A DNA stretch of 64,000 nt. It comes from Isurus oxyrinchus. Its lineage: Eukaryota. The stretch is taken from the NCBI GenBank assembly GCA_026770705.1, contig JANJGN010000021.1, forward strand, positions 90,520,001 to 90,584,000, given 5' to 3'. The position numbers and the translations under genes are program-made. The notes beneath the pieces were generated by a model, which saw only the letters and a list, made by a program, of their open reading frames with translations, ran no database searches and was not told the origin of the DNA. This document shows, piece after piece, positions 4,970 through 63,334 of this stretch. Within the stretch, counting starts at the first letter, position 1, and each line of letters starts with the position of its first letter.

Positions 4970-5005
4970 AAATTAAATCATTGAAAACTGCTTTAAAACA
5001 TGCGG
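4970..5005 (+). CDS. 36-nt symmetric phase-1 micro-exon, (E)IKSLKTALKHA
   Basis: Acceptor ttttatttttttccag, donor CGG|gtgagg; 36 nt and open in the phase-1 frame; amphipathic peptide. Confidence 0.75.
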
Positions 5006-5869
5006 GTGAGGGAATCACAATATATTATACTTTCATGAGCATTTTCTGACAAAAGAAAAATAAACATTATTTTCAGTACACAACCCAACTTGAACATCAC
5101 ATGTTATTTTCAATGTAGAAAAATGCTTGAACTCTGCAAAGTGCAGCTCTGCAAATGTTGAGAATTTTCAAGGAGTCTAAGTTGGGTTTGATAAAGGATT
5201 CTGAATTATTTCTTTAGTCAATTAAATCGAAACACGCTTTTTAAATTTGTGTCCCTTTATTTCATGTTGATGGAGCTTCAAGAGTTGGTTCTGGGATTTA
5301 TATAGCCTAAACAGGGTATCAATTCTGATAACATTCCCTTATCTTAATATTATTCGTAGATTCCGTTTTTGCCTTGGGGTTTATAGAGCTATCCAAACTC
5401 TTAAAAAAAATGGCAATTTGTTTGCTGCGGAATACTCTTTAGATTCTGTGAAGTATTCCCCTGAACTTTTAGACAGCCCATCAAGACAACAAAATAGTAA
5501 CACGTGTTGCATTTGTGTTTCATTTTGGCATATTGAACGTCCTATGAGCTTTAACAAAAATAACTAAAATGAGAGCATAATAGACTAGTATACATTTAGC
5601 AGATAACCAAAACCATGTGCAAACAGATTTGTTTAATCGAGATCTTTGAATTTAGAAGGCAGTTGTGTTGTGTAAAGGAGAAAGGATGCAACCTGAACTT
5701 ATTCTGTGAGCACCCGAATACAAGGCCATCAATTTTCGGCGTCAAATAATTAGAGTACAGATATTTTGAAGAGTTAGGCTGAGGAAGATAAGTACGATTG
5801 GAAGTTACGTGACCATTACCGTGCTTCAAAAAGTAATGGGTTTATTCAAGCTCAGGTGTTGCATATACA

Positions 5870-7010
5870 CAAGACATGGGACACAATCAGGCAAAGTTCT
5901 GTGGGAGAATATAACTTGATCCAAGTTAGGACAGGCGATGCGGAATTTTTATTACTTCAAGCTAATAGCGGATACAATCTTGAAACCTTCCATGACTTCA
6001 TTGGAGTAGCCAAGTCTGGAGAAAACAAAGTATTGATAAGAGCTTCAGGAACATGTGAGGCAGGAGCCGTATCATGTTATGCCAAGCAATGGACACTAAA
6101 CCAAAGACCTTTGCAAAATAACAATAGGAACGTCCATAAGTCTCTAATCATAATCATAACTCGAGATCCAGGTCCATAGGAAATTAATCCATAAAATATT
6201 TATGGTGAAATACATATCACATAAAATACATTCAGTAACTTAATTCCCATCAGTGATATGCTCACCCTGATGCTTGGTGTAGATTTGGATCTTCTAGATC
6301 AACCTTTGATATGGCCTTGTTGCCACAAAGAAATCCAACAAAAATGACGAGACTAAGGCCATGAATCAGCCACTGCATTCTCGTCATACAGATTTGGGAG
6401 GGAAGCGAGCTCACGACTGAATTAAAACATGACAATTGTAATTATCTCCAAACTGTAAGAACTACCATTCTTTGGAAATTTCGGATTTATTTCCCGTTTT
6501 GTCGGAGCACGGAAAATCCTGACATGCATCCTCCTGGATTTACTACTTCCTGTGACTGATGAATACCTCCCAGGGACAAAATGTGGCTTCGAGCCTTGAG
6601 GATGAGCCTCTGGCATCATCTTTGTTGCCAGAAACACCCAAGACGGCTGTTATGAACAACAGAAAGAACTCTTCGTTCTGTCGATTGACTTGGCCAATCC
6701 ATTTTTTTCAGTAAATTAACACACTCTGTGGACTAAGCTCTATGCATTTGGATGTTCAAGGAAATTCATCACAATCCTGCTTCACGATGGGGTGACTGCA
6801 CCTCTTTTGAGTGGGAGATCTGAAACACTCACTTTGAAAACACGCAGGTCTGTCATGCTGGACTGTGTGATAACCACCATGCTATTTACCATCTATCTAA
6901 TAGTAGATATTCACCTCACTAATGATCTCTGGTGTGATTACGAAATGCAGCTAGGTGGAAAGGTAGCCCCCTTGCCAATACCAACCTAACAACCGTAGAC
7001 ACACATGATG
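5870..7010 (+). mobile_element. Decayed RTE-clade LINE reverse transcriptase fragment
   Basis: Translations IFVAR..EQQKELFV, FGCSRKFITILLHD and SVMLDCVITTMLFTIYL resemble RTE RT motifs (GVKQGCVIAPTLFSIY). Confidence 0.65.
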
Positions 7011-7119
7011 TATAGAATGCCCAAATAGACACTGTTTTTCTGCAATATTCAAGAGGTTTGCAAGACCTACTCATTCTCTTCAATTCTGTGTGCAATAAAT
7101 GTAGCTGTCCTTGAATAAA

Positions 7120-8270
7120 ATATAGAAACATAGAAAAATTTAAACCAGGAGCAGCATTAGGTCATTTGGCCTTTGCGCCATCTCTGCCATTCAATATGAT
7201 CATGGCTGATCCTTTATCTCAATGTCATATGCACACTTTTGCTCCATATCCCTTGCTGCCACTAAAACCTAAAAGGAAATCAATTTCTTTCTTGAATACA
7301 CTCAATGACCTGGCATCCATAGCGTTCTGCGGTAGAGAATTGAATAGGCAGACCATACTCAGAGGAAATGTTCCCTCAACTGAGCCTAAGCAACCTTCAC
7401 CATATCCTGAGACCGTGGCACCTGGCTATACACTCTCCAACCAGGGAAACTTTCTCCCTGCATCCAGTCTGTCTAGCATTGTTAGAATATCTTTATATTC
7501 AATTAGATCCCCTCGCATTCTTCTGAACTCTAAATAATACAGGCCCAGTCGAACCAATCTTTCCTCATATGACAGATCTGCCATCCCTGATATCAGCCTA
7601 ATGAACGTTCGTTGTACTCCCACTATGGCGGGTAGATATTTTATGAGGTAGCGGGGGCAAAACTACACACAGTTCTCCAGGTGTGGTCTCAACAAGGACC
7701 TGTACAACATCAGTAAGACATCCCTACATCTGAACTAAAATCCTTTTGCAATGAAGGCCAACATACCGCTTGGCTAAAAGACAGATATGCTGGAAAAACT
7801 CAGCTGGCCTGACAGCATTGGTGGAAAGAAATAGAGAATTAACGTATCGAGTCCGTATGACTTCTTCAGAGCCACTTGGCTTCCCAATTGCTTGATAAAC
7901 CTGCCTATTTAGTTTCATTGACTGGTGTACAAGGACACCCAGATCCATTGTGCATCCACATTTCTCAATGTATCAACATTTAGATATTGCTCTGCCTTTC
8001 TGTTTTTTACACCGATGCATATAACTTCACATTTCTGCATGTTATACTGCATCTGCCAAGTGTTTGCCCTCACGCACAAATTGTCTAAATCGTCCTGAAG
8101 CCTCCTTGCATTCTCAAGACATTTCACAACCCAGCCCAATTTTCTGTCGTCAGAAAACTTCGAAATATTGGATTTGGTTCCCTCATCCAATTCATTTATA
8201 TATATCGTATGTAACTGGGGCACAAGTGCTGATCCCTGTGGTACACCACTAGAAACCACCTACCATCCAG
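7120..8270 (-). mobile_element. CR1 LINE 3' fragment (RT to 3' tail)
   Basis: VSSGVPQGSALVPQLHTIYINELDEG..KFSDDRKLG; LSYEERLVRLGLYYLEFRRMRGDLIE; ttctat-type tail at ~7125. Confidence 0.92.
7776..7871 (-). mobile_element. 96-bp Penelope-associated hammerhead-type short element inserted in CR1
   Basis: Flanked by ccgcttggct (7766-7775) and ccacttggct (7872-7881); minus strand reads ctgaagaagtcatacggactcgatacgtta. Confidence 0.7.
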
Positions 8271-8279
8271 AAAAAGGCA

Positions 8280-11200
8280 CATCACATTTGGTTCTTTTGC
8301 AAATCACGTTAAATCATTGCCCTCTCATTCTTGATCCTTTATGAGAGGGAACAGTTTCTCCTTATCTTCTCTGTCCAGCCACCTCATGATTTTGAATATC
8401 TCTATCAAATTTCCTCTTAGCCGCCTTGTCTCTTGGGAGAACAGTCCCAAACTCTACAATTATTATAACGGAAGTTTCTAATCCCTGGAGCCATTCTTGC
8501 AAACCACCTCTGCATTCTTTCCAACACGTTCACATCCTTCCTACAATGTGGCGCTCAGAAATATTCAATATACTTCTACTAAGGTCTAACGAGAGTCTTA
8601 TATAAAGTCAGCATAAATTCACTGTGCTTCTATTCGTTCTCACTATTAATAATTGCCAGGATAGTAAAAGCTTTGTTAATTGCTCTTTCCACTTTCTTTC
8701 CCACGTTTAATCATTTATGCACACATACATCCAAATCTTTCTGCTCCGCCATCCACTTCAAAATGTCGCCCTTCTTTTTTCATTTTGTGCCCATGTTCTT
8801 CCAACCAAAAGGTTTCACCTCACACTTCTCGGAATTGAAACTCAGCTGGCACGAACTTGCCCACTCCACCAACTTGACTGTGTCCTTAGGACCTTCTGCA
8901 ACGCCCTACTCGCAGTTTGCACCAGCCCCAGGCTTCGCACATTCTGCAAACTTTGAAACATTCCACTGCACACCGATATTTTGATTATTAATATGTATCA
9001 GGGAAAGCAAGGGCCCCAATACCGACCCCTGGCTTACTCCATTATAATCGTTCTTCCGGTCAAAACAATATTCATTGAACACTACTCTCTGCTGCCCATA
9101 TTTCAGACAATTTTCTATCCACATTGCCATTATCTCTTTTATTTCATGAGCAATAAAATTTCTCACAATTATATTGTGTTCTACTGTATTAAATCACTTT
9201 TGAAAGTCCATGTACACCACATCAACAGCATTATACTCAAAGAACTGTACTGTATCCTCTTCGACTAACTCCATCAAGATAGGTAAACGTGATTTCCCCT
9301 TTAGAAATCCATGCTGGGTCTTCCTTATCAACCTACATTTTTCTATTTGAATACTACTTTTATCCTGAATAATTGTTTCTAGAATCTTGTCCACCACTGA
9401 AGTTGAACTGACCGATATGTATTTGCTGGGCTTATACTTGCAATTATTTTGAACAAGGGCTTCCTCTGGTACCTCTCATAAGTGTAGGGGCGAGTGAAAA
9501 ATTATGGACAGTGTCCCTGCAATTCCCATTCTCACTTCCTTCAATGGCCTTGGAAGAACCTCGAATGGTCCCAGTGCCTTGTCAACTTTAAGCACCAACA
9601 GTCTCTTCAACACTTCCTGTGTATCAATTTTGAAACCTTCTACTGACAGAATTTCCTGATCCTTCATCATGCCCTGGGTAGCATCTACCTCCTTTTAAAA
9701 GACTGGTGCAAAATATTCATTTAATAGCTCAGCCATGGCACCTTCGTCCATGTGTAAATTCCCTCATAGGTCCCTAATCGGCCTTACTCCTCCTATTACC
9801 ATTTGAACTATTCATATTCTTTTAAAAGACTTTGGGATTCCCTTTTATGTTTGCTTCCAGTATTTTGCCATAATCCTCTTCGTTTCTCTAAAACGTCTTT
9901 TCACCTACCTTCTGAAGCTGTCTATTCCTCGTGGTTCTCAATTGTATTTTCTACCTAATACCTGTCATAAGCACACGTTTTCTTCTTTATTTTAATTGCT
10001 ATCTCAGTTTTCATCCAGCGAGCTCTGGATTTGCTTGTCCATACTTTCCCTTTCAATAAACCGTGCCCAAAGCGATTCTTTTTTTGAAGATAGCCCATTG
10101 TTCAGCTATAGTTTTCCCATCAATCTTTTGTTGCACTCTACCTGCCGCGGCGCCGTTCTTGCCCCATCAAAGTCGGCTCTGGTCCAGTTAATTATTCATA
10201 CTTTGGATCACATATCGCGCATTCCTATCATCATCCTAATACGTACGACACAATTATCATTGTGTCCAAAGTGTTCCCCCGCCTATACTTGATATACTTG
10301 GCCCATCTGCTTTCCAAGAAACAGCTCCACAGTGCTACCATTCTTATTGGTTAGGGACACAATGATGTAGAAAGATCACCTCAACACAGTCTAGGAATCT
10401 CTTCCCCCCCTACGCCTTTTACACTACCACTGCCCCAGCCTATGTTCAGGTACTTAAAGTTTACCTTTTAACTATTCAAAATGGCTTGCATCTCTCTGCA
10501 ATTTCTCCAGAATTGTTCTCCTATGTGCTTCTCATGAGTTGTTGGGCTTTGGACTACACGTAGCAATGTAATTGCACTCTATTTGGACCTTAGCCCTAGC
10601 CAAATTGATTCTGTTCTTGAACCCTTTGGGACACCCTCCTTCTTCGGCACTCCAATGCTCGCCTCATCAAATACCGCTGCTCCTACTCCGTTCCTATATT
10701 TTCTAAACAACTTGTGCCCAGGAATATTCAATACCGAGTTCTGCCCTTCCTTGAGCCAGGTATCTGTTATCGCCACAACATTATATTTCCACATCGAAAT
10801 CTGTGCCTCTAACTGCCCAATCTTACTTATTATACTCTGTGCATTCACATACGTGTATAGTAACCCTGAATTCATTTTGCTACTCTCTCCCTCACCGCGA
10901 TTTCACCTATTAACTCATTATTCTCTATTCAAACGATTTCTGTCTCTTCCAATATTTTGTGCATGTTTTCTCTTTGTTCCCACACCCTTGCTGAGTTCGT
11001 TTAAAGTCCTCCCAAAAACATTAACAAAACAGAACTAATTCCCACCTCTGTTCAGGTGCAACCTGCCCGGCTCGTACAAGTGCCATCTCCCTCTGATACA
11101 TTTCCACTATCACAGGAATTCCTGCTGCACTACCTTTCTAGCCAAGCACTCATATTCCTTACCCTCGTTTGTCTGTATTCTCTGGCACTCGGAGGAAGTC

Positions 11201-12110
11201 GGAAATTATTTTATGTGGTCCTGCTTGTTAGTTTTCTACCTAGCTCCCTGAATTCTGATTGCAGAACCATATCCCCCTTCCTACCCGTGCCATTGGTACC
11301 AATGTGGACCACGATCTCTGGCTATTCACTCTCTCTGAGTAGAATGTCCTGCAGCCGTTCTGTGACATCCTTGACTCTAGAGAGGCAACATACCATCCTG
11401 CAGCCACGTGTACGACCACAGAAACGCCTGGCTGTTCCCCTGAACAATGAAACCCCTTTCATTATTGCTCATCCTTTCTTCTTCCTCTCCTCCTGTACAG
11501 CTGAGCCCCTTGTGGTGCTACAACCTTGGCTCTTGCTGCCTCCTTGGAGGAATCAGCGCCGTCATCAGCATTCAAAACGGAAAACCGATTTTTGAACTGG
11601 GCCCAGGCTCCTGCACTATCTGCCAACTTCTCTTGGACTGGCTGGTGGTCAGCCATCAAGCCTCTATTCCAGACCCGTAAACTGGGGTGTGACCACCCCT
11701 ATGAACGAGTTATACACGTAGATTTCAGCATCGTAGATGCACCACAGTGACTCCAGGTGCCGCTGGAGCTCTGGACCCCGAGGTTCCAGTTGCTGCAGCT
11801 GGCAGCGCCTCCTGCACTTGTGGTCGTCTAGGAAGCATCCAAGACTTCATACATATAACAGGACAAGCATTCCACTCGACCGGGTCGCTCTGCCGTGTCT
11901 TTATTCTACTTGTCTTACGTTAACTTTATTCTACTTCGTATTATTTATATTACTTCATTATATTATCCCTAAATTTTCTGTACACTTGATGCTTCTCAGT
12001 TAAATCGAATTATAGCTACCTGTTTAAAACTATGTCACTTTTCTTACGTACTCACCAGGTCCTACTTACCAAGTCCTCCGCTCTGCTTTCTCCAGAAAGG
12101 TTGAAAAGAA
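8280..12110 (-). mobile_element. Near full-length decayed CR1 LINE (ORF1, APE endonuclease, RT)
   Basis: APE motif YVNAQSI..YNVVAITDTWL (10579-10875); RT motifs QHGFLKGKS, VDVVYMDFQK, GVSQGSVLGPLL; ORF1-like FKNRFSVL (11462-11659); frameshifts and stops. Confidence 0.9.
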
Positions 12111-12211
12111 AATGAGCACCTCCCCTCTCGTCACCACACTCCCTCAGTCAACTCTGCTCTCAAGATCTTGTCATTCCTCATGCTGCATTACAAGCGTTTC
12201 TGCTGCCCTCC

Positions 12212-12630
12212 AGATGTTGCTGACTGCCTGGCTCAGGGTCCCTCCCCCCCCCCCCCCCCCCCCCCACACCGTGCAACCTCCTCTAATTGCTGTTAGCTGC
12301 CTGTCCCAGGGCCCTCCTCTCGCCCTCTCCTTTGGGTGCTGCCGGCTACCTGGGTCAGGTCTTACTCTTGGAATCTCCTCTACATCTTTCTGACTGCCTG
12401 TCCCACGGTCCTCCCCTCACACTCTCTCCTAGGCATAGCTGACTGCCTCTCCCAGGGTTCTCCTGTCGTACTCTCCTCTGGGTGCATTAAGACTGTCTGT
12501 CCCGTGGGCCTCCTCTCGCACTGTCTCCTAGGTGCTGCTGAATGCTGGCTCGGGGTGCTCCTCTCGTGCTCTCCTCTAGGTGTTGCTGACTGCATGGCTC
12601 AGGGAACTCCTCCTGCACTCTCCTCCTTCA
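12212..12630. repeat. Degenerate ~49-bp minisatellite, about 8-9 units, with a poly-C run
   Basis: Recurring tgactgcctgtcccagggtcctcctctc..ctctcctctgggtgctgc at 12391, 12440, ~12490, 12539, 12587. Confidence 0.8.
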
Positions 12631-14039
12631 AGTGGGTTGCCATCAGCTCCCAGGAACTCGGTAAAGAAATTTTGTCATGAACCTTGGCAAAACCTTTTGG
12701 CCTTCCAGCTGAGATGCATTGAGAGCAACCTCTTCCTGAGATGGAATTCGTAGAAATGATACGTAATTATCATTGCTCAATGTGGATTGTTGGTTTACGA
12801 GATTTCTGAAGCACTCTTCCTAATGAGAGAGGATATCATGACCATTTGTTTGAATCTAGTTGACATCTTCTGAGACGCTGCATGTCAAACCATGGATTTT
12901 CTTTTCCAGAACTGACCGAAGGCCTTCATTTCGAGACTTCGATCTGGTTTCAAGCAGCTGCATGAAAGGCATCAAACCTGTCTCCGCACCATTCGTTACT
13001 CATCTTTCTGACTTCAGACTGCAGCATGTGTTTACTGCTACCCTACTTGTAATTCATTGCTGGTGGTTTCTTGTCAGATATATAAGATCAGTGAGGCCCG
13101 TGTTCTCCTTATGGAAGCTTACCTGTGTCTTGGTCTTTGTTGCCAAAATAGCATTGGTGCTTCCATGTAAGGAATCGTAGCACTAAGTAACATCTTTGAC
13201 ATGTTCCAAGGTTCTTCATTGCAAAATTGTTTTCCAAGATATGAGCAATCCCTGTGGTTAGTTTGTGTTTCACTTCTTATTTCTTTGCCATTTTAAATAC
13301 TGTTTCTTCCAGCTTCTTTTCTGAATCTTCTCTGTGCCGAAGTGCGCTGGCTTATATCCTCAAAGACACAAAACATCTCACTAGCAAATGGTCCGAACAT
13401 CATTCTGCACGTCAAAAGTTTCCAGTAGGTCACACGTCCTTGACCGTTCTCTTTCATTCATTAATGTAGTCCAATGCGTGCTATTGATTGGATCTGCAGT
13501 TGCATCCAATTGTTTCAATTTGCCTGCTTGTTGAAATTCGGTTTGTTATGGTTACCTCAACATCGCTGCACTTGGAGAGAATATGAATGAATTTTAGTCT
13601 GCTAATACCGTGAAGGCTAATTTCCTACTCCACAAGTTAAAGTATATGTACACTCAGGCATTTAAATCACCAAGAATAATAATTTTCCGCAGGTGGGATA
13701 TTTGCCGAATTAAGTTTCTGAATTGAATATCGAATATTTATTGGACCTAATTTGTATGCGTCATTGTTGGATCATGGGCTTTAATGAGTATTGCATGTGG
13801 TTCGTGGCTATACTAAAACAAAAAATAAATGAGCCGATGGCCGATTCACATAGGAAGAGAGCCAAACTTGCGTTCCAGTATAGATCGAATGGCAAAAAAC
13901 ATGCCTGAATGAAGAGTTTGGTCCTTGGATTGTCAATTCTGTAGAATGTACAACCTGCAACGGCTTCCTTAATTTGAAAAACCTCAGCAAGCCTTGTTTT
14001 ACTTGGGGAGGCTGTGTAGATAGTTTACGTAACTAATAT

Positions 14040-14997: not shown

Positions 14998-15100
14998 AAG
15001 TTCTGTTGAAGGGTCATGAGGATTCGAAACGTGAACTTTGTTCTTCTCCACCAATGCTGCCAGAGCTGCTGAGTCTTTCCAAGTAATTCCGTTGTTGTTT
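14998..15100 (+). mobile_element. Penelope-associated hammerhead-type short repeat
   Basis: agttctgttgaagggtcatgaggattcgaaacgtgaact followed by the gctgccagagctgctgag tail shared with other copies. Confidence 0.65.
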
Positions 15101-16414: not shown

Positions 16415-16441
16415 AAGAAAAGTTGCGACAGAAAGGAGAAG
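16415..16441 (+). CDS. 27-nt symmetric phase-1 micro-exon, (E)EKLRQKGE
   Basis: Acceptor attctttttgccag, donor AAG|gtgagg; purine-rich; 27 nt; open frame. Confidence 0.8.
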
Positions 16442-16637: not shown

Positions 16638-16664
16638 AGCTGGACGAAGAGCTTCGAACAGATG
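16638..16664 (+). CDS. 27-nt symmetric phase-1 micro-exon, (E)LDEELRTD
   Basis: Acceptor tttattattttttag, donor ATG|gtgagt; 27 nt; open frame. Confidence 0.8.
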
Positions 16665-18890: not shown

Positions 18891-19920
18891 AAGAAGGTTC
18901 TGATATCACAAAGGAAGATGCTTGTGGTTGCTGGAGGTCTGTGTACTCAGCTCCAGTACATCCCTGCAGGAGTTTCTCAGGGTGGTACACTCGGCTCAAC
19001 CACCTTCAGCTGATTCATCAATGACCTTTGTTCCTTCATAAGATCAGAAGTGGTGATGTTTGCTGATGTTTGCACAATGTTTAGCACCGTTTGTGACGTA
19101 TCAGACACTGAAGCAGCCCATGTTGAAGTGCAACAAGACCTGTACAATATCAAGGCTTGGGCAGGCAAGTGGCAAGTAACATTCGCACCACTCAAATGCC
19201 AGGCAATGACTGTCTGCATCAAAAGTGAAGCTAGCCACCGCCCCCTGGCGTTCAATGGCTTTACCATCACTGAATCCCCCACTATCAACATCCTGGGTTT
19301 TGTCATTGAAAAGAAACTGAACTGGACTAGCCATAGAAATATTGTGGCTACAACAGCAGTAAGAGACTAGAAATCCTGTGATGGGTCACTCTCATCCTGA
19401 CTCCCCAAAGCCTTTCCACCATCTACAAGCGTAGGTCAGGAGTGTGATGGAAAACTCCCTACTTGCCTGGATGAGTGCAGCTCCCACAACACTAAAGAAG
19501 CCTGGCACCATGCAGGACAATGCAGCCCACTTGATTGGCTCCACATCCACAAGGGAATACACTCACTCCAACACTAAAACATGCTCTGCAAGAATTCACC
19601 AAGGCTCCTTACGCAGCACCTTCAAAACACATCACCACTTCCAACCAGAAGGACAAGGGAAGCAGATAGATGGGAATACCACCACCTGGAAGTTTCCTTC
19701 CAAGTCAGTCACCTTCCTGACTTGAAATATATCGTCGTTCCTTCACTATTGCTGGATCAAAATCCTGGAACTTCCTCCCTAATAGCACAGTGCGTTTATC
19801 TACGCCACACGGACTGCAGCGATTCAAAGAAGGAAGCTCGGCACCACCTTCTGAAGGGCAACTAGGGATAGACAATAAATGCTGGTGCAACTATCGCAGG
19901 ATATCCCAAGAATGAATAAA
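18890..19920 (+). mobile_element. CR1/L2-group LINE 3' fragment, second family
   Basis: MFADVCTMF..QQDLYNIKAWAGKWQVTFAPLKCQAM; tail agggcaactagggat..aataaatgctgg. Confidence 0.88.
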
Positions 19921-35805: not shown

Positions 35806-35832
35806 AAAATGCATGTGTAGAGAATGGCAAAG
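35806..35832 (+). CDS. Candidate 27-nt phase-1 micro-exon, (E)NACVENGK
   Basis: Weak acceptor ttgttggcgttgtag, donor AAG|gtgaat; same length and phase as neighbouring exons. Confidence 0.4.
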
Positions 35833-36344
35833 GTGAATTCTCTTTAACAGGACACTGTGACGGATTTGACTCTTTTACGTGGGGGGAAAATTCGGCATTG
35901 CTCTTTTAGAAATCTGGTTATTCATATTTCAAGCAGATAGGGATAAGGGAAATTTCAGATTTTTGAACTAGAATACCACAGGAGCAATGAGAAACAAGTA
36001 TGCTTGCATTGTTAGATGACAAAAAGCTACTGGAATGTTACTTTTTTACTTCGAGGTAATTGTGGTGTTTCCGAGCCCCTGAGCACAGACAATTTCGCGC
36101 ACATACTGTGCAATTGGAAACTGGCTGCTTGTTGCAAAGCATCACTTTTGGCCATAAAAACACTTCACCAAATAATTAGGTTTATGTACAAATTACCCGC
36201 TAATCCGACACAAGGTAGCGGCACTGCATCTGGAAAAAAAAAATGTGCTTTGAACGTACTGACCCAGCTATATTCCAGGTAAGTATTCAAAATAACGACT
36301 GAAAGAAATCAAACCTGCTGAAACGTTTCCCCTTTATGCTGCAG

Positions 36345-36380
36345 AGCTGGAAACATTGCGATCTTCTTTTCAAGTTACAG
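36345..36380 (+). CDS. 36-nt symmetric phase-1 micro-exon, (E)LETLRSSFQVT
   Basis: Acceptor tttcccctttatgctgcag, donor CAG|gtgaga; same length and hydrophobic spacing as exon 4970-5005. Confidence 0.75.
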
Positions 36381-37104
36381 GTGAGAAAATTGGATTCAAA
36401 GTGCATTGATTTGATTCAAGATCAAATTCTTGAAACCTCAGGAGTAACATTATTAGATTCCGGTGGAACATCATTTTCTCAAACTGCCTTCTTTCCCGCG
36501 TAGAGTGTGAAATACGATTAACTTGCATGGGTGTTGTGCGAAGGGAAGTTACATTGAGGGAAGTTATAGCTGCTGTGAAAATATGACCTTAGTCATCAGA
36601 ATGATTTGTTCCATTATATGAGAGCTCAAAGATACCATGTAGGTATGGCTGAATGCTAAGTATTTGTTTTCATCCAATGGTTTTGGTTATCATCTTAAGC
36701 TCCCTTTGCGCGTAAATATTAGTTAAATTGTTATAATTTTCTGATATGGAATTTCGTGGCAATTCGAGGAGTATTTCCAACACACTTCACCAGTCTTGAG
36801 TTAAATATGCCAAGCAATCCTGTTTATATCATCACTGTCATTGATCATAGGCATAGCAATTAAGAGATGGTTCTTGCATTTTTATGTGTAAACACTTGTA
36901 AGACTCCAGGGAAGTTAAGAAACTTGCTGAAAACGAATTCATTTATAGGCGCCCGTTTCCGAGACAAGTTATAACACAGCAATGACAGCATCTTTACAGA
37001 ACTATAATATAATATATTACAATATAGTAAGCCCCATTTGATCTAATTTCCCCTGTACCTTGCGGGAGAAATCATAATCTAATCCTATTTTTATTTTATC
37101 TGCA

Positions 37105-37650
37105 GCATTGGGGACTACACCCACTAACAACCCGCCCCCCCCGCCCCCCATCCCACCCGACTACCCACCAGCCTACCATCTTTGGGATTCTTTCCACCCC
37201 CTCCCCCCCGATTCCCCACCCGCGGGACTCTGGCCCCTCCCATAAGTAACTATGTCTGCTGATAGGGAGTCCGAATGGCCGGAATTCCTCCCCCCTCAAC
37301 TTCCCACCCCACCCCAACCCCCACGAGTTCCCACGAGGATGGAAACACTTCTCCCTCCCCTTATCCTACCAGCCTCCAAATCCTTCCCGTTTACCTTATA
37401 GGCTTACATTCTCCGTGGCTTATCAAAGGTATTTTATCTTCGCTGGGCCTTTCACATACCTGCTTTACGGCAGTTGTTGCAGTAAAAAGGAGACCTTGCT
37501 TCCATTCATTCGACGCAGCTACAGATCGACTTTCGGTTCTGAGGACGGGCTGCATAGGGCAGAAGGCGGGGCTAGATAAGATTTCAGGTAAAATAATGGG
37601 AATGGATTGGCAATACGACGCTGTTTGCCTCGCGGAGAAACTTCAGGCCC
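37105..37650 (-). mobile_element. GGGCC-terminated non-autonomous element with G-rich tract on the minus strand
   Basis: Minus strand starts gggcctgaagttt; aggtaaac motif at ~37390 precedes the G-rich tract. Confidence 0.45.
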
Positions 37651-38748
37651 ATAATATTTTAACCCTCTACATTACTGCGTGAAAAGTAAACAGATGAAAC
37701 GCTGAGATGTTATTTCGTTGTGGCTGGCGGAGAAGGAAATTCACTGCCATCTGCTGTCCACATCGCGCACTTCAAATTTCAGGCCTCCACCAATATCCCC
37801 CTGTGGCTGCTGTATGTATCATCTGTAAGATGCAGAGCAACAAATATTCGTTGCTTCTTCAATGGTGATTGGCAAACAAATTAGCTCTAATAATTGTAAG
37901 GATTAGGTCAGCAGGGATTTGGCGAAATGGAACATTGCCAAATGGAAATTAATCCCAATCCAAGCACTCTTCCAAATCCAACTATGACGCTGGTCCTTCA
38001 TGGCCCCTGGAAAACAAAAATATTGGGACTTACTCTCTAACAGTAACGAAACATAAATAGACTTATTGCTTCAAGATGGCAGTTGAATAGCACCTCCTCA
38101 GGGTCAATCCTGTGCAAGCAATGCATGTTCGGCTTGTTTCTGGCGCTAACGGCATCATGAAAAAAATAATAGGTACAGCGCGAAACTATTAGAGAAGCAC
38201 GATTCATTGGAAATATCGACGCAGACTTTTATCAAAAATTACTTCAACACACAAGGAAAACCATGAGGATGAGAAGTTATTTTTCAATATGAAGAGCATC
38301 CCACTAGAATCTTAAATTAGTTAATTAGAGTGCGTTTTTTGGCCTAAATCGAGTTTAATTATGATAGTTGCGGTCGCAGTATTAGAAAAAGAAAGCATGC
38401 GCAAAACCTTAAAAGGTCAATTAGCCAGGCTATCATAAAACCAACTTAATTGGAACCTTAAGTCCTTGAAAGAGGTAAACGTCACAGATAAAATACAGTT
38501 GTTGCCTATATCTGATTCCAGACATTACAACTATGTTATTTTAGTATATCTGTCATGATGACAAATAATCCATGTATTCTTCTGTGTGCTACACAGAGGT
38601 TGGTCTGACAAAGATGAATGAAGTTATATTTCTACACAGTATATTCTTGCCACTTCTGTCCACTTGGGTAAAATCCTAACTCTTTATTTTTTTTTAGAAA
38701 ACAGGTTTTAAGATAATGATTATTAAATATTTATACCAACTACTTTAG

Positions 38749-38775
38749 AAGAGAACAAACATCATGAAAACAATG
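38749..38775 (+). CDS. 27-nt symmetric phase-1 micro-exon, (E)ENKHHENN
   Basis: Acceptor ccaactactttag, donor ATG|gtgagt; intron start gtgagtaacgtaa resembles gtgagtaaacgtaa after exon 16638-16664. Confidence 0.75.
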
Positions 38776-38919
38776 GTGAGTAACGTAAAAGAGAGGCATA
38801 GAACAGCTATGCATTGCATAGGCCTTAGGTGTATTTCCTAGAGAAACCAAGAAAATGAATTGCAGGTGAAATTCGAAAGGGTACGGAATCCAAAGCACTG
38901 ATATCGCATTTGCGGAATT

Positions 38920-46412: not shown

Positions 46413-47599
46413 ATTTTTAGAAATATTGTGCAAGAAGACACTTGCATGTAACATAAAATTGATGATTTTAATTGCATTTATTTAACTTAGTTCACAAAAA
46501 ACGTTCCATCTTTTTATAAAAATAGGTTGGCTCATATAATGTTCTGATTATACGTTAGAAATGTTTGATGCTTATTGGCTCTTTTTAAGTGTACTCTCTC
46601 AAGCGATCTTTTGATAGTTATTGAAATGAAATATTTAAACAGGTCGCACGTGTGTCCTAGGATTTGTCCGATTTTAAACAAAGTGCATTTCTGGAAGTCT
46701 AGAACTAAGGTCACCCAGCAAACAAAATCCCAGAACTTTCAGTTTAGATATTGAATGTAAAAGCGGCAGGAATAATCTATAAATTGTTTTAGACACTGAC
46801 AATCTTTGTTTTTCTCTATCTTCGATACCTCAGAAAGGAGGCAGAGCTACTACTGTCATATGACTGGATGAAAATCGAACATTTTGTCCATACGTTCTTA
46901 TTTATGCAAAACGCATGGTGATGGATAGAACTGAAAACGTTGCCCCTGACATTGTGTGAGCTTCTGACTGCCAATAACTAGGATGTGAGAAGAAAATGAA
47001 ATGGCCTTAGACTCCTGAAACCTACACCTTACACAATTATTTTGGTGGTCTCCCGCTACAGGTAGCATAAGCATTTTTATTAATATCTGAGCAGATTTCG
47101 ACGATAATACCTCATTGTCAGCTTCAGCAGGGAGCGCCATTTAGGCAGTGGCACATGGTTGGTTCATGTTACATCGGCCAAAAGGAAACCACTTGAAGCA
47201 AATAAAATGGTGGTCCATTTATTTCACAACTTTTGTACCCCAGTGATGCTGACTGTCCTGTTCATATTTCAGCCGTCCAGCAGTTTTACATTACCAATGT
47301 TAAGTGTGATATCACATACACTGACTTAAACAAAATGTCATGGAGGCTGAGGCAAAAAGAGGCCATGCTATTGGGTGCCTGTTCTGCGTCAGTGGATTGC
47401 AATTAGAGAAACAGAAAATTGGCTTCAGACTTAAGGTGCGGTAGCTCCATTAAAAACCACCCGCTTAAAGGTACGAGCAAACATGGATTTCTGCATCACC
47501 ACATCGCCATCTAATTTAAATGATATTCGTTTTTACCATCTGGGCACTTAGTATCGCTGCAACAGAACCACTCAGTGTAAATTACAGAAGGAAAAATAA

Positions 47600-48255
47600 T
47601 ATTTTTAAAGGGACACTTACCTTCATTAGCCTCGGCATAGAATACAAGAGCAGTGTGGTTTTGCTGGAACTGTATAGAACGCTGATTAGGCCACAATTGG
47701 AGCACTGTGTTCATTTCTGGGTTCCACATTATAGGAAGGATGTGACAGCAGTGGAAACGGCACTGAGGAGATTTATCAGGATGCTGCCTGTGCTCGAGAG
47801 CTGGAGCGATGAGAAAAGATTGGATAGGCTGGGGTTGTACTCCTTGAAGCAACGAATGTTGAGAGATGACCTGATACGGATATATAAGATCATGATGGTC
47901 ATAGATTGGGTGGAATAAGAAGGCTCTTTTCTCCCCATTAATAAATGGGCTCAATATCCAGGGGGGCATAGATTTAAGATAAGAGTTAGAAGTCTAAGAG
48001 GGGAATTGGTGAGATTTGTTTTCACTCAGAGGGTGATTGGAGTCTCGAATTCACTGCCTGAAAGGGCGGTTGAATCTGAAACTCTAGCAAAATTTAGGAA
48101 ATATTTACATCTTCATTTGGGTTGCAATAGCCTCCAGAGCTATAGTCCAAGAGCTGCAAAATGGGATTAGTGTAGTCAAATCTTTGTTGACCAGAGCGGA
48201 CACGATGGGCCGAATGGTCTTCTTTGGTTCTGTAAACGTCCATGACTCTATGAGA
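47600..48255 (+). mobile_element. CR1 3' fragment
   Basis: LELYRTLIRPQLEHCVHFWVPHYRKDV..LDRLGLYSLKQRMLRDDLI; tail ccatgactctatga. Confidence 0.92.
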
Positions 48256-52211: not shown

Positions 52212-52235
52212 AAAACAAGGCAACATGGAAGTTAG
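52212..52235 (+). CDS. Candidate 24-nt phase-1 micro-exon, (E)NKATWKL
   Basis: Acceptor tttatctttactttcag, donor TAG|gtagga; open frame. Confidence 0.55.
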   Translation, partial: KTRQHGS

Positions 52236-53155: not shown

Positions 53156-53173
53156 ACCCCAAGCCGCGGCAAG
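53156..53173 (+). CDS. 18-nt symmetric phase-1 micro-exon, (D)PKPRQ
   Basis: Acceptor tgctatttctcatag, strong donor AAG|gtaaga; retains CpG in an AT-rich context. Confidence 0.7.
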
Positions 53174-53289: not shown

Positions 53290-54180
53290 AACGGTTACGT
53301 TGCCTGCAGAGAAAATATGTGACATAATGCTAGGTGGGAATGTGTGCTGACAGTAAGATGTAAAGCAGCTACAGGAAGATGCGGGCAGACTTAGTGAGTA
53401 GGCAAGATCCTGGCAGATGGAATATAATGTTGAAAAATGTGAGGTTATCCACTTTGGTAGAAGGAACAGATGTGTAGAGAATGGTAAGAAATTAAAAAGT
53501 GTAGATGAACAAATTGACATTGTCCATAAATCACTGACAGCTAACAGCAGGCATTTATGAATGCTATTGGAATGTTAGCATTTATGGCAAGAGGAATTGA
53601 GTACAGGAGCATTGAAACCTTCCTTCAATTTTATAAAGGCTTGGTTAGACTGCACCTGGAGTACTGTCTGTCGTTTGGGTCCTCTTACATCAGAAATTAT
53701 ATTTTTGCCTTAAAGGGAGCACAACGAAAGTTCACCAGACTTGTTCTGGGGATGGCGAGACTGGCTCCCGTAGAGAGATTGGAGGGACTGGGCCTGTGTT
53801 CACTCGAGTTTCGAAGAATAAGAAGTGATCTCAATGAAACCTACAAAATTCTTAATCGAACATAGAAAATAAATGCCGGTCAGATGTTTCCACTCGTTGG
53901 GGAGTCTATAAGCAGGTAACACAATTTATCTTAGGGCCAGGTTGAGAAGAAATTTCTTTATTGAGGATTGTGAACCTTTGGAGTTCTCTCCCTCAGTGGG
54001 CCGTGGAAGCTCAGTCATTAGTATGTTTAAGGTAGAGATTGATAGATTTCTGATTAACAATAATGTAAAGGGTTATGGGGATAGAGTGGGTAAAAGTCAC
54101 TAAAGTGTATGATCACCATGTTCGCAGTGAATGGCGGAGCAGGTTTGACCAGTTGAATGGCTTCCCCCTGTTCCCATTCC
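53290..54180 (+). mobile_element. CR1 3' fragment
   Basis: GMLAFMARGIEYRS..LVRLHLEYC..LGLCSLEFRRIRSDLNETYKIL. Confidence 0.92.
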
Positions 54181-56945: not shown

Positions 56946-57853
56946 TGCTGAAGCACTTAGTGTGCTTTTTCAAGAAGCTTCGTGTGCAATTGCAGGAAAT
57001 GGAAAACATCCGTGGAAAATTTGGTAGGCTGTTAAGATAATCTGCTCACGTTTTCCAATTAATTTTAAATCACTGCATTTAAAAGTAAATCAGATGGTTA
57101 ATAATTGGGCTCGAAGTTGTCCAGAGAGTCCCGCAGGCAGCTGTACATTCTATTCAATTTTGCTTTCCATTGACTTCATTCGAATATTTGTCTACGTTGA
57201 CATACAAAAGAAGTACTGGGCGCGCTTTACATTACAACATCTGGAGGAAGTAATGGCCTTGAATACCATTCACTTACTAAAGAGGTGAAGATGATACCAG
57301 CCGAATGCATGGCACCGTAGATTCATGAATGTACTCACCAAAGTATATAATACAAATCAGCACAGGAGAAGGAATATCTCATCACCTCAAGTGAAAAGCT
57401 GCAAGCAACACAACCAAACCTTTACTCTTTAATTCTGTCTTCCACAACAGACTTTCCTGTCCTGCAGGCTTTGAAATTTGAAAGAATGTCATTATTTATT
57501 TTTTACGCAATCTAAAGCTCATTGCCTACATACGAGCAATTTAACGCATTTTAAACTAATTTCAGATTTTCGTTGCCGTCTCTCATAGATGCATTCTAAT
57601 AATCAATTCAAAACTTATTTTGATTAATTAAAAACAAGTTTCAAACTGTGCAGTTGATATGAAGTGAATTGTTGGGATTTAGCTAAGTTTAGAAGTTTGA
57701 TTTGCTTTCGAATATTTTTTCTTGAATTGTCGAACACAGAATGGTTAAGAAACTTTGGTGTGGAAACTTACATCACCCAGCACGAACATAAAATTAGAAA
57801 CAGATCAAGGCGGGGCTGAAATTTCATGGCATGTTTTCATCTTTATAATTCAG

Positions 57854-57922
57854 AGGAAAAACAACCAGGAACATCTTCCCAAATAGTTCCTGAATCTGTA
57901 CTTGTTGAAACTGCGAAGACAG
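57854..57922 (+). CDS. Candidate 69-nt phase-1 exon, (E)EKQPGTSSQIVPESVLVETAKT
   Basis: Acceptor ttttcatctttataattcag; 23 open codons; donor CAG|gttccc is weak. Confidence 0.45.
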
Positions 57923-58059
57923 GTTCCCATAAATTGTTGGTAGTCAAGCTTCCCAAATAGCATTTAAGAAATGTAGATAAATAGACTTAAGATACTGCTC
58001 AACCAAGATACAATTGCATGTTCTGCAGTAATAATAACTGTTTGTTTTACAATTGCAAG

Positions 58060-58077
58060 GAACAGGTGGCTCTCCTG
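58060..58077 (+). CDS. 18-nt symmetric phase-1 micro-exon, (G)TGGSP
   Basis: Acceptor tttgttttacaattgcaag, strong donor CTG|gtgagt. Confidence 0.65.
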
Positions 58078-58279
58078 GTGAGTATATACACAGAAAAGGA
58101 AAGAAAAGAGAAGGAACACTGTAACTTTCAGCATTGGATAGCCATCGAAACATGTGTAATAGATACTGTCACACAGTCCTGTGTACCAAGAGTCCCCAAT
58201 AGTCAGAGCCTTTCCTCATTTATTTTCTGGCACTAAAGTGAGCTTGAAAGCGTAACATGCCCAGCTTTACCTTGCTCTG

Positions 58280-58400
58280 TATCTCTCTTTCTTTCTTTTG
58301 TTCTTTCTTTCATTCATTCTTTATTCTTTCTTTCTTTCTTTCCTTATGTTGTTCCTTTCTTTCTCTCTTCCCTTGTGTTGTTCCTTTCTTCCTTTCTGGC
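58280..58400. repeat. (CTTT)n-type pyrimidine low-complexity repeat
   Basis: Direct reading; includes duplicated cctt(a/g)tgttgttcctttctt. Confidence 0.85.
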
Positions 58401-58864
58401 TATCTTCATAATATGTCTTTAGAATATAAATAGTCCTCCTGTAATTGGAGGCTTGGTCTTATGAAGCTGAACGTATTCTTCTCTGTGCTATATATAATTT
58501 GCATGTAATGCTGTGTAAATAGATCAAAGCAGTCTTATTGAAAACAAAAATCATAATGGTAAACAGTGACTCCACATAGTGACTTTATAGTTTAAATTTT
58601 ACTATTATCAGTCATTTCAAAATTCCATTCAATTAAAAAACTTAAGTGTAATGCTAGATTTTAGTTATAGTAGGTTATTACACATTTCGAGCTTACATTT
58701 ATTCCCCCTAGTGGAAGGCTAGTTACACTGATAGATACCCTGCTCAGACTAATTTAGTGTTCTGTGTACATTTCCAAGTGCCCTCAGCAATGATTTATTG
58801 ATTTTGGATAAGGTGCAGTTTAGATTTGTCAGAGCGATACATGTGTAAACACACTGTAATTATG

Positions 58865-59230
58865 ATGAAAGTTGTGTAGACTAGGCTTGCGATCCCTTGA
58901 GCATAAAAGACACTGAGGCAATCTATTTGATTCGTTTGATAAAATGACTTTGTCAGTCTAGATAGAGGGAACGTAAAAGGTTCCCTCTGTTGGGGGAACT
59001 CAGCTCAAGTTTGCACATCTTAAAATTAGATTCGGGCCACTCAGGGGTCTTTTAAGGAAGAACTTAGTCACAAGCCTCTTGAGAATATGGAAAGCTCTTC
59101 CCATAATATATCTGCAAGTAGCTCAATTGACAAGTTCAAAATTCAAATTAATAGGTTTTTTGTTCAGGCGCACTATGAAGAGTCACAGAAACATATTTCA
59201 ATGAATGGATGACATAATCCTATGACTACA
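58865..59230 (+). mobile_element. Old CR1 3' fragment
   Basis: tagactaggcttgcgatcccttgag (RLGL-SLE motif) and ttccctctgttgggggaactc. Confidence 0.55.
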
Positions 59231-60429
59231 GAACCTATCCTGTACACATGTACAGTGCTTCCTATTTTCACAAAATATCCCACCTTATTCAGGCCAGGAT
59301 TTGGCATGTATTCCCGAAAATCTAACTAAATAACAGCCCGACATACTTTACCCACTTGTGGCAATCATGCTTCTAAAATCATCAGGATGCTGCCATTACT
59401 TTTGCTGGAACCATTTGTCTCGTGTTCTGGGAAGTGAGGCAGTGCGGCAGCTTGAATCAACGGCAGAAAAATATAAATTTAAGCTGCATGTTTCTCAAAT
59501 TCAATGCAATATCTGTTGCGTGATGGTCTAAGAGGAACACAAATGTAAGTGCTTATTTTGTTTGTTCTGGAGCTATGGGGAGCTGGAGAGCCCCGCGAGA
59601 GTGTCCCAGATAAACTTTGTCTGTCATGATGCTTCCCATCTTCCTGAGTTCGACCAGAAACCCAAAACATTTTCTTCAGGCTGGAAAATAGTTGCACTGT
59701 TCTAAAGTAACAGAGAGCTAACTGAGATTATGATGCAATATATCAATGATTACAAGAATGCCCTGCTAAAACTACATAATATTCATCATCTCCAGGCATG
59801 CCCCAGCCTGTTTTCTCCTGCAACCCTTATCAGCTTTTATCTACTGACAATTAAAATGTATCTAACGCCTTGCCTGGCATATTCTGTTTCATAAAATTCA
59901 ACCAGTGCAAACTCCACTGGCAGTTTTCAATCCCGCCCGCCTTATTGTCCAACCGTTATTCCATTCACTGCTTATTTTTTTTCTCCCAGCCGCCCAAATT
60001 TTCCATTTGAAATTGACAAACTTGTGTTTAACTCCCATCAAGACTTGGCCTTTCTCTGTCACTGTTACAGCCATCTCGACATCTTAATTGTCATAACTTT
60101 CCAAGAAAATGTCTCGAGACTAGTCAGATCTCCAGATTTTTTTTAACATCAGCATTTTCGTCCTGCCTTCAGCCATTTGGGTCATTTAATCTGGAATCTT
60201 GTCGCTGATTTACGTCAACGAAAAATAAAATCAAAGACTATTGTAAAATTCGCTGCCGATTGTGTTAACATGCGTTCTAAACGCGGGATCAACGCGAATA
60301 TGAACCCGTTGTATCTTTATGCACAAAAAATAGTTTCTCACAGCTGCACTATAATCCAGGAACATAATAAACAATAAGTGGCAAAGGTCAATTGACAATT
60401 TCGCCCTTCTCCATATTTAAGTAATCATG

Positions 60430-61275
60430 GGTGGACGTGTACATCAACTCTGCTCCCCACATGAGCCCCGTATCTCTTAGTTGCCGATACCATCAACCGC
60501 CATGAATGTAGTCAACAACTGCGTGTCCAGAAATATCTGGGGTAGAAAACTGCGAATATTCAGAGATTTCCCTGCGTTGCAGCTATAATTGAGAAGCAAC
60601 AAATCCGGAGTCTATGTCCATAATTTCCATTCTTCCCAGTCCCTGAAAAACTATTCTCTGGATCACTTTTCTAAAACCACTTAAGAATGCTATGTACTTC
60701 CAATGAAATCAACTCTTTGTCTTATAAATTCCCTAAAAAATATTTTCCTCGAAGGATAATTGCGTAAACCCCGGAATAGTGTAATGAAAATTCTTCCCCA
60801 GAACCCCATCCTCTCCCTTAGTTAAGGAGGCGAAATTATGTACATGGTATGCCAGCTATGCTCTCACCAATATCTGGATAATTTTAGTGAGAAGTCTTCA
60901 TTCTCAATCTCCGATCCATTTGTGAGAAAATCTATTACAACATTGGCCTTACTATTGGGTTTCTGCACCTGCATATTGTACTTATTTCATTCATGTACAT
61001 GGACATCTTACAGATCGCATTTCCCTTTGAATTAACAAAGTGGTACTTTCAAAATCTTTTGCAGCTACTGCAAATTTCTTTGAAAGAATTCATTTCTAAT
61101 TTAAAGACAGGACAATGCTCGGAAATATTTCCAATCTCGAATCCTTCAAAAGGTTCTCTATTTTCTTCTCATTTACTTCATACCAAAATGGAAACTTTCA
61201 CAGCATGTCAGATTTTGTTCCATCTGCCACGTTTTCTTGCACTCACCCAACCCCGTTATATCCCCCTGCAGTCTC
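60430..61275 (-). mobile_element. Old CR1 3' fragment
   Basis: attacaacattggccttactattgg..tcatgtacatggacatc parallels 7750-7945. Confidence 0.55.
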
Positions 61276-62089
61276 TGTAAGTTCTCTCCATGTGGCCAAC
61301 TGATACTGATGTTAATTACAGCCATTAGTTACAGCATTGCATTCCGAAAATTTTCAATTTATTCTGAAACGCTGGTTACAGTCAATTCACCAATCCTAAT
61401 TGCAAGCTAATATTTTACTGCAGACACCAACTGTTGAATAAATGGGTTCAATAATCTCTTGTAGCATATTACCGCTTGACTCTTAAATTAAACAATTACA
61501 TCTACTTCTGCTCCCTATCCTTCCGACTGGTCACATCATCAATAAACATAACAGAAATTTCAAACATTTCATAAACATTTGATGACTTCCATTTTAAGAT
61601 TTTCTGAGTGTTCTGTTACCAATACCGTAATATTGCTGAAATAAATTGCTGAAGATTTTTGTCTTGAACCTCATTGGCGAACGCAGTAAAACATTTCAAA
61701 TGATCAATGCCGATGCACTGCCAGGAATGTAGGCCAATGATTTGCTGATCCAATGCAGCAGCATGTTCCTTTCATTATGTGTAGTAGGCAGAACACGGAC
61801 AATACTGAAAAAGACCACGCTTGAAAGACTCAAGGCAGCACAGCATTGTCTCATTGAAGATTTCTTATTGTTCTAATAGATACACTAATAACCAATTTAA
61901 GATTTAAGTTTTGCACGTAACATGATACATTTACAGTTGCGAGAAGATTTATACATACGTACAGAGGGACCCGTTCTCTGTAAATAAAATACTTTTTTCC
62001 ATTCTTGCACTTTTTGTTTAATTATCAGGGAGCTGGCATGCGTATTGCAATTCTTCTCATGACAAGGCCTGAGCACTCAGTGTTGACAC

Positions 62090-62850
62090 AACAGAATCCA
62101 ATAATCACTGAATCATAGTTCAGGAGAAGCCATTCGGCCCATCGAGCCTGTACAGACACGTGAGAAACACCTGACCTACCTACCTTATCCCATTTACCAG
62201 CACTTGGCCCATAACCATGATGTAATGACGTGCCAAGTGCTCATCCAGGTACTTTTTTAAACGACCCGAGGCAACCTGCCTCCAGCACCCTCCCAGGCAG
62301 TGCATTCCAGACCGTCACCACACTCTGAGTAAAAAGGTTTTTCCTCACCTACCCCCTAAACCTCCTGCCCTTCATTTGAACTTATGCCCCTTTGTGACTG
62401 ACCCTACAACTAATGGGAACAGCTGCTACCTATCCACCCTGTCCATGCCCTTCATAATCTTGTACACCTCGATCAGGTCGCCCCTAAGTCTTCTCTGCTC
62501 CAACGAAAACAACCCAAGTCTATCCAACCTTTCTTCATAACTTAAATATTTCATCACAGGAAACATCCTGATGAGTCTCCTCTGCAGCCCCTCGAGTGCA
62601 ATCACGTACTTCATTTAACGTGGCAGCGAGGACTCCAGCTGTAGCCTCACTAATGTTATATATAACTCCAATATGACCTCCGTTCTTATGCAATCTATGC
62701 CTCGATTGATGATGGAAATTGTCTCATATGCCTTTTTCACTATCCCACTAAAATGCCCCTCTGCCTTCAGAGATCCATGGACACACACGCCAAGCCCTTT
62801 TTTCATCAGAACTTCCTACTGTCATGCTGTTCATTGAATATTTCCTTGTC
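62090..62850 (-). mobile_element. Relatively young CR1 3' fragment
   Basis: ALEGLQRRLIRMFP..LSYEERLDRLGLFSLEQRRLRGDLIEVYKIM; intact 3' UTR ccattcggcccatcgagcctg. Confidence 0.93.
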
Positions 62851-63086
62851 AAATTAACAATCAATGGCAACACTCATCTCCTGCAGTAAAAATTGCTGTG
62901 ATTTTTTGAAATGTTTCATTCTTGTGATTGCCCTGATGAAGGCAATACCAAAATTTTCGGTAACATTTCTCCCATTCCACGAATGTTCAAACTCTCAATT
63001 AACACCTTATATTATTTGACCTACCACTGCTTTGAGTCTAAAGGGACTGTAGTTAGTTTTTTTTCTCTCTCTATCTTCACCTTTAG

Positions 63087-63116
63087 TTGCAAGTAGCTGG
63101 GCAATAAAAACTGAAA
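63087..63116 (+). CDS. Candidate 30-nt phase-1 micro-exon, (V)ASSWAIKTE
   Basis: Long pyrimidine tract ttttttctctctctatcttcacctttag, donor AAA|gtgaga; open frame. Confidence 0.45.
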
Positions 63117-63316
63117 GTGAGAAGCTCCAATACCTCTGCAGTTAACTCGTTTGTACTCAATGCACACATTTCGTCTGAGCTAGAATATGTGTCACCTCTT
63201 ATCCTTAAATCAACTAATTTCACTTAAGCTCTTCAGTACAGTGCCTCTTTACATACTATTGTTGATCCTTGTATTTTCTTGATTAACATTCAATGTTTGG
63301 TTTTCCGTTAACAAAG

Positions 63317-63334
63317 TAGCAAATTCGCAGAATG
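63317..63334 (+). CDS. 18-nt (or 15-nt via AAG/TAG tandem acceptor) phase-1 micro-exon, xANSQN
   Basis: Acceptor ttttccgttaacaaag(tag), donor ATG|gtgaga; open frame. Confidence 0.6.

Follow-up and report, generated by a model that had tools for sequence, protein, structure and literature searches.

A megabase array of phase-1 micro-exons near the shark major histocompatibility complex and a candidate coiled-coil rod with a broken B30.2 head

Introduction

Coiled-coil tails built from very small exons are known from the chicken BG genes, and here we describe an array of related design in the shark Isurus oxyrinchus (4.98-Gb genome), seen from a stretch of 64,000 nucleotides (nt) at C21:90,520,001-90,584,000 (hereafter the window, on contig C21). 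Among mammals, the enterophilins, far shorter proteins, combine a soluble, long heptad zipper with a B30.2 domain and carry neither RING nor immunoglobulin (Ig) domains. Chicken BG genes are described as having mostly 21-nt exons, ~27-38 in each gene, which follow an Ig-V domain and a transmembrane helix (PMC5938342, PMC4046983, PMC8813856), and the BG-derived zipper protein as a soluble BG tail that regulates the actin-myosin interaction (PMC4046983, PMC8813856). Butyrophilins lie on the chromosome of the major histocompatibility complex (MHC) class I genes in sharks (PMC12841164), and an interaction of enterophilin with SNX1 is reported (PMC13749957).

A preliminary description of the window had proposed that a cartilaginous fish carries here a micro-exon gene, invisible to open-reading-frame analysis, whose design is akin to that of the butyrophilin and BG tails; both proposals are now backed by a B30.2 exon, by relatives in sharks and rays, and by linkage to the MHC. 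The interpretation towards which we lean, with modest confidence, is that the window segments are exons from the middle of a ~1.05-Mb unit (unit 1) with at least 240 micro-exons, which would encode a soluble coiled-coil rod of at least 2,300 residues; as the B30.2 exon closing the unit is broken, this rod would probably lack a binding head.

The family is kin in design to the heptad micro-exon tails of BG and butyrophilins, yet it stands outside BTN, BG and TRIM by the Ig or RING domains that define them. Like chicken BG, the array comprises MHC-linked tandem genes in which a long heptad coiled coil is spread over a variable number of tiny exons that split the first codon, and the proposed rod without B30.2 in the window's unit has its counterpart there too. 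Unlike those of BG, the exons of the array are mostly of 27 and 36 nt, with hundreds of them spread across more than 1 Mb, and neither a single Ig-V domain nor a transmembrane part was found. Butyrophilins share the order of heptad repeats followed by a terminal B30.2 (PRY-SPRY) domain, which is present here in the last unit of the array (unit 3) and in a small paralogue (gene A) and is dead in unit 1; their IgV, IgC and transmembrane segments were not found, and the heptad region of the array is far longer. TRIM proteins with B30.2 also combine a coiled coil with that domain, and many TRIM-type SPRY exons lie on the same contig, but the array and the models of its relatives have no N-terminal RING or B-box. 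The enterophilins resemble the array in their long heptad region with B30.2.

Results

Candidate exons were sought in 1.93 of the 1.98 Mb at 89.51-91.49 Mb of the contig, the 50 kb left out lying near the 3' end. The array is 1.57 Mb long; between 89.72 and 91.35 Mb, 309 plus-strand candidates stood against 9 on the minus strand in 1,575,200 bases; these scores were not leave-one-out, and a leave-one-out run was similar, with 112 + 83 candidates above the third-best decoy in 1.264 Mb. In phase 1, 305 of the 309 plus-strand candidates lack a stop; together they supply ~3,060 codons, in which Lys, Leu, Glu and Asp are frequent. Under a splice-flank model, plus/minus counts by length were 10/0 at 18 nt, 17/0 at 24 nt, 87/3 at 27 nt, 7/1 at 30 nt and 70/1 at 36 nt, some of the 24- and 30-nt matches being inner acceptors of longer exons; no enrichment in the array was seen at 21 nt. 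Of 116 exons of 36 nt scored by splice flanks, 115 were open in phase 1, whereas the two remaining phases were open in 16 and 48; of 125 exons of 27 nt, 123 were open in phase 1, compared with 65 and 51. The encoded content is heptad-type, Gly-poor and rich in Leu, Lys and Glu; one 27-nt and one 36-nt exon together give 21 residues, or three heptads, and if a single exon of either length is skipped, the register of the heptads shifts, by 2 or 5 positions. Collagen, triadin and TSBP1 were considered and set aside, as the Gly-poor, Leu/Lys/Glu-rich content and the B30.2 exon argue against them.

After the last micro-exon of the array lies a live B30.2 exon, a 172-codon phase-1 SPRY/B30.2 exon whose closest solved structure is the B30.2 domain of BTN3A1 (E 8e-23). 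A sensitive search also revealed, within the array, two decayed B30.2 exons of full length, which start 244 kb (offset 307,980) and 307 kb (offset 370,885) past the window, together with a half copy at offset 308,700. Aligned with the live exon over 551 nt (nhmmer E 1.3e-20) and 536 nt (E 2.8e-18), the two dead exons show 60% and 62% DNA identity, and the likeness extends to the upstream intron edge; the live exons of unit 3 and gene A share 64%. The first dead exon has 9 stops in 158 codons and ~10 frame-breaking gaps, the second 4 stops and ~15 gaps, these counts being alignment-dependent. The first retains an acceptor (score 8.9) and reads for 18 codons before its first stop, with an AATAAA further on; the second has lost the acceptor AG.

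These internal dead exons divide the array into tandem units, and with their discovery a single gene that ends in the live B30.2, our initial reading, became the less favoured one. All units are on the plus strand. Unit 1, which holds the window, spans 89.78-90.83 Mb and contains 208 catalogued and 32 further 18-nt exons (~2,300 residues). Unit 2 (offsets 348,791-370,900) is small and decayed; besides the second dead B30.2 exon it has two exons of 36 nt and one of 27 nt that contains a stop. Unit 3, the 3' part of the array, has 95 catalogued exons and the live B30.2, and an exon-poor stretch of 130 kb with stop-bearing exon relics lies between units. A stop is borne by 1 of 209 catalogued exons of unit 1, against 9 in the 158 codons of the first dead exon, and the ratio of nonsynonymous to synonymous divergence (dN/dS) between units 1 and 3 is ~0.19 (0.08-0.29; 20 exon pairs picked by protein likeness, with dN biased low); on these grounds the rod appears to be under selection.

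The window covers ~4% of the array, and from it alone the death of its unit's B30.2 exon is not visible. The eight strong segments of the preliminary description are all flanked by AG and GT, open in phase 1, and 36, 27, 27, 36, 27, 18, 18 and 18 nt long; they lie, as it had stated, in unique DNA, none of the eight overlapping DNA repeated elsewhere in the 1.98-Mb region. A null by strand, phase and length, of the kind that the preliminary description had called for, used a generic splice matrix not trained on these data. At a score of 10, the plus strand of the window had 12 segments of 15-39 nt, of which 7 were of 18, 27 or 36 nt and open in phase 1; on the minus strand this held for 1 of 10. 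At a score of 13, the proportion was 5 of 7 in the window versus 6 of 71 in flanking DNA outside the array (255 kb, both strands).

The segments were then scored by a splice-flank model trained solely on exons outside the window, with the minus strand of 1.264 Mb as decoys. Five of the eight each outscored all minus-strand matches, and these five fit the profile of a chondrichthyan micro-exon coiled-coil/B30.2 family with 27/36-nt phase-1 exons; they and the further exon segments listed below with start and end are on the plus strand. The highest score (39.3) belongs to a 36-nt phase 1-1 micro-exon of the family type at 4970..5005, with hydrophobic residues at 2, 5, 9 and 12, whose top nhmmer look-alikes are other 36-nt array exons, each of them weak (E 0.09-1). 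Two 27-nt phase 1-1 micro-exons at 16415..16441 (score 29.2) and 16638..16664 (18.1) form a pair with a 196-nt intron; this short-intron module (105-196 nt) recurred at 10 of 10 inspected places of the locus, and the acceptor and donor pattern of the second exon is that of its paralogues. The remaining two phase 1-1 micro-exons are one of 36 nt at 36345..36380 (31.0) and one of 27 nt at 38749..38775 (23.1). Tandem acceptors 3 nt apart were observed at 16415/16418, the inner of which would yield a 24-nt exon, with one residue added or dropped.

The three 18-nt segments are plausible exons but do not singly rise above chance. The possible linker exon at 53156..53173, with a strong donor and a weak acceptor, is equalled by 15 minus-strand window candidates, and the acceptors of the other two score negative in the outside-trained model. 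That at 58060..58077, again with a strong donor, may be a Gly/Ser/Pro linker, as the catshark protein has such linkers ahead of the same downstream block; that at 63317..63334 is the weakest of the eight (acceptor 1.3, donor 8.1), and an nhmmer search for its paralogues found none. Across the whole array, strong-donor 18-nt segments number 44 on the plus and 22 on the minus strand, so chance alone would supply about one for each window; nonetheless, weak acceptors do go with exons of this length in the array, in 33 of 33 units of a tandem block described below.

For the six weaker candidates of the preliminary description, given there without coordinates, we drew up a set of our own, from which one more exon emerged: a 24-nt phase 1-1 micro-exon at 52212..52235, outside the eight, whose splice-flank score of 23.8 exceeds all minus-strand window candidates and which is akin to a 24-nt exon at offset 644,839 (nhmmer E 0.009). 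Two others are doubtful, namely a 27-nt segment at 35806..35832 (score 8.3, equalled by 33 minus-strand matches), which sits where the module would lead one to expect an exon, and a 69-nt segment at 57854..57922, perhaps the 69-nt call of the preliminary description, with a good acceptor and a poor donor (1.1) and of a length that is not enriched in the array. Those at 53310, 26390 and 26778 lie inside repeats.

Orthologues of parts of the locus are held in RefSeq for Scyliorhinus canicula (XP_038671249.1, XP_038672306-310), S. torazame (XP_072329362.1), Narcine (XP_069775418-428, XP_069775384-390) and Chiloscyllium (XP_043533988-9). They are named A33-like, TRIM39-like, golgin-like, trichohyalin-like or BTN1A1-like, Pfam assigns them SPRY or nothing, and they span at most 945 residues, none of them covering the window. 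Catshark XP_038671249.1 could be matched in order to 57 micro-exons in the last 250 kb of the array, with 45 of 56 links exactly adjacent; the chaining rewards adjacency, and the three largest gaps are unread DNA. A block at offsets 67-277 kb, which starts 3.6 kb past the window, is a paralogue of the array's 3' block. For a Narcine model without B30.2, the fit to this 3' block of unit 1 (1170) exceeds that to unit 3 (975), and the protein P0029, also without B30.2, fits the same block. Other database proteins match blocks upstream of the window. Each database protein of 128-597 residues matches one local block. Long stretches of intact exons line up in order with proteins from other species, with as many as 8 of 8 and 9 of 11 residues identical. 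A hydrophobic period of 3.51 characterises the catshark and Narcine proteins, and an AlphaFold model predicts long helices with short breaks at low confidence (mean predicted local distance difference test, pLDDT, 55); this model, from an alignment of three rows, left the B30.2 part without a fold (pLDDT < 50). Searches of open-access literature listed no study of this chondrichthyan family.

The preliminary description had also argued that exons could be skipped without loss of frame, and a stop indeed arises at the joint in just 65 of 46,360 ordered exon pairs. It went on to suggest a combinatorial splicing system. Combinatorial systems of the schistosome micro-exon gene or Dscam type reach high isoform diversity through free or mutually exclusive skipping. 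The RefSeq isoforms of the relatives vary internally mostly by single short modules (6, 8, 8, 9, 9, 9, 11 and 12 residues), along with one 18-residue and one 23-residue block and one isoform without two pieces; in Narcine, nine isoforms of ~590 residues have only five internal variable sites. These models (Narcine, Scyliorhinus, Chiloscyllium) are predictions, not measured inclusion levels. Some single-module skipping is thus likely, and the combinatorial proposal is not upheld.

Among the matches listed for the live B30.2 exon, none is on record as RNA. Contig sets presumed to derive from RNA cover it in part (346, 192 and 160 nt, with 0-2 differences); one of them also carried a piece of intron and none a joint, so they are no proof of expression. 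The 2.7 kb at 36200-38900 of the window had no match in four contig sets, by a method that can give false negatives.

Inspection of the flanks for domain exons, suggested at the outset, succeeded for B30.2 and failed for Ig, for which none of 315 open frames gave a hit (111 upstream of gene A, 109 upstream of unit 1 and 95 within the gaps of the array); likewise, no Ig motif was found in six frames of the 1.98 Mb (50 kb of it unread) and no Ig domain in the relatives' models. No convincing transmembrane exon was seen ahead of unit 1, whose first coding exon was not located; the relatives of gene A begin directly in the coiled coil. RING and B-box were found neither in the array nor in the relatives' models, a RING motif occurring solely in downstream neighbours.

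Just upstream of the window, at offsets of about -60,500 to -1,000, three near-copies of a block of 24/27/18-nt exons point to a recent internal triplication. A second repeated stretch, at C21:89,881,519-89,947,900, consists of 33 tandem units of ~1.5 kb, each with one 36-nt and one 18-nt exon (18 residues per unit, not a multiple of the heptad). Acceptors of these 18-nt exons are A-rich with the pyrimidine tract nearly absent, and differences among units are spread evenly over codon positions (0.25, 0.27, 0.25). Mutually exclusive use of the 33 tandem 36-nt exons was considered and dropped, each having its 18-nt partner.

In the wider neighbourhood, gene A (C21:89,670,904-89,722,745; 50 kb) has micro-exons and a live B30.2 at 89.722 Mb, and its catshark and Narcine relatives run from the first Met as coiled coil and SPRY, annotated TRIM39-like or A33-like although without RING. 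Upstream of it lie RNA-recognition motif and zinc-knuckle exons of an RNA-binding protein gene (L144:4911-5123, L145:2992-3579), which we take to be RBM4-like; another neighbouring exon, presumably nurim-like, had no match in the ESM Atlas or Pfam. Downstream are a ribosomal S7/S5 gene and a RING/B-box gene. MHC class I exons occupy 93.6-100.3 Mb of the same contig, 2.3 Mb from the live B30.2 exon, and dense clusters with well over 100 TRIM-type SPRY exons surround that region (C21:82-118 Mb). Five B30.2 exons related to the array family lie at C34:2.7-7.5 Mb, four of which were placed in a B30.2 tree and group with the family. This tree, unrooted and of small sample, separates the array family's sequences, the four C34 copies included, from TRIM-type sequences with support 100/99; 16 of 19 rows were kept, the motif filter having missed one C34 exon and one Narcine protein; L186 and P0019 are absent from the tree. 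Within the window, open frames resembling fragments of reverse transcriptase or endonuclease of long interspersed nuclear elements were noted by eye at 7900-8300, 10550-10900, 19000-19400, 47500-47900 and 53550-53870, and ~30% of its length recurs in the region that was read.

Discussion

In the interpretation we favour, symmetric phase-1 exons would have allowed the rod to grow by tandem duplication without loss of frame, and the pairing of 27 and 36 nt would have preserved its register. Whole units would also have been duplicated in tandem, after which two internal B30.2 exons died and the rod exons stayed under selection. The unit-1 transcript would end at or near the first dead exon, which offers an acceptor, an early stop and a poly(A) signal. 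A coiled coil rises by 0.148 nm per residue, and the rod, segmented and probably dimeric, would act as a spacer or scaffold of up to ~340 nm, by analogy with the BG-derived zipper protein, perhaps pairing with the adjacent B30.2-bearing paralogues. Single-module skipping would trim such a rod slightly rather than write a combinatorial code.

Several points weigh against this interpretation. The window exons yielded no joint in RNA. When 11 peptides from the window were compared with 11 family proteins, none clearly beat its shuffles (the best, that of 4970, was equalled by 2 of 30), so direct orthology of the window exons is not established. The family's database models are fragments, which makes the absence of B30.2 from them weak evidence; the choice of exon pairs by protein likeness lowers dN; and the exon-poor gaps of 50, 32 and 29 kb in unit 1 could be gene borders. 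Rod function and dimer formation are predictions. Finally, no start-codon exon or promoter was identified for unit 1 or unit 3, which leaves room for transcription through the units.

A headless rod is preferred to such read-through, which we regard as a possible but distinctly less probable account. It would make units 1 and 3 a single 1.57-Mb gene of ~350 micro-exons, close to the exon count of titin, joined past both dead exons into a rod of more than 3,000 residues capped by the live B30.2. All exons up to the live one have strand and phase in common, almost no joint creates a stop, the second dead exon offers no acceptor AG, and neither a first exon nor a CpG island was found ahead of unit 3; set against this are the acceptor and poly(A) signal retained by the first dead exon, the 130-kb exon-poor stretch that keeps the units apart, and three database models that each fit one unit, none crossing between them. 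In a version of this account that we rate equally doubtful, tandem rod-and-B30.2 genes would have fused on the death of the internal B30.2 exons, and the ~350-micro-exon transcript, which could stop at the dead exon and encode a headless rod or run on to the live B30.2 and encode a headed one, would provide a switch of length and head near the shark MHC.

That unit 1 is instead several shorter rod genes, or has many internal promoters and ends, giving a window protein of a few hundred residues, seems unlikely to us. The three gaps in unit 1 and the short database proteins that match a single local block each would fit such a division, but the gaps hold no further B30.2 relic (nhmmer E > 0.7), the 28 open frames of the 50-kb gap hit no Pfam family, and the database models seem truncated at both ends.

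Combinatorial splicing, with many variants produced by free skipping, is very improbable in our judgement. Frame is preserved in 99.9% of exon pairs, isoform models of three genera differ by exon-sized modules, and chicken BG tails are alternatively spliced (PMC5938342); yet the Narcine isoforms vary at so few sites, single skips break the heptad register, exon order is the same in the catshark and the Isurus genome, and the isoforms themselves are predicted models rather than inclusion levels. Least probable of all is the view of unit 1 as a copy that is dead or dying and in which splicing of the micro-exons has ceased: its dead B30.2, the decayed small unit that follows and a scan that detects solely exons with intact splice sites would agree with this, and the rarity of stops beside the dead exon's and the long colinear runs of intact exons matching proteins of other species speak against it.

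The locus indicates that megabase genes lie beside the shark MHC which annotation truncates and misnames, nearly all of their exons being shorter than 40 nt. They carry the tail design of butyrophilins and BG to an extreme, apparently without a membrane anchor, and if the units are read through they would be among the most exon-rich genes known. As a headless rod, the window's unit would show loss of the head with the rod kept, in parallel to the difference between BTN and BG in birds, and may thus provide a testable case of gene growth and domain shedding.

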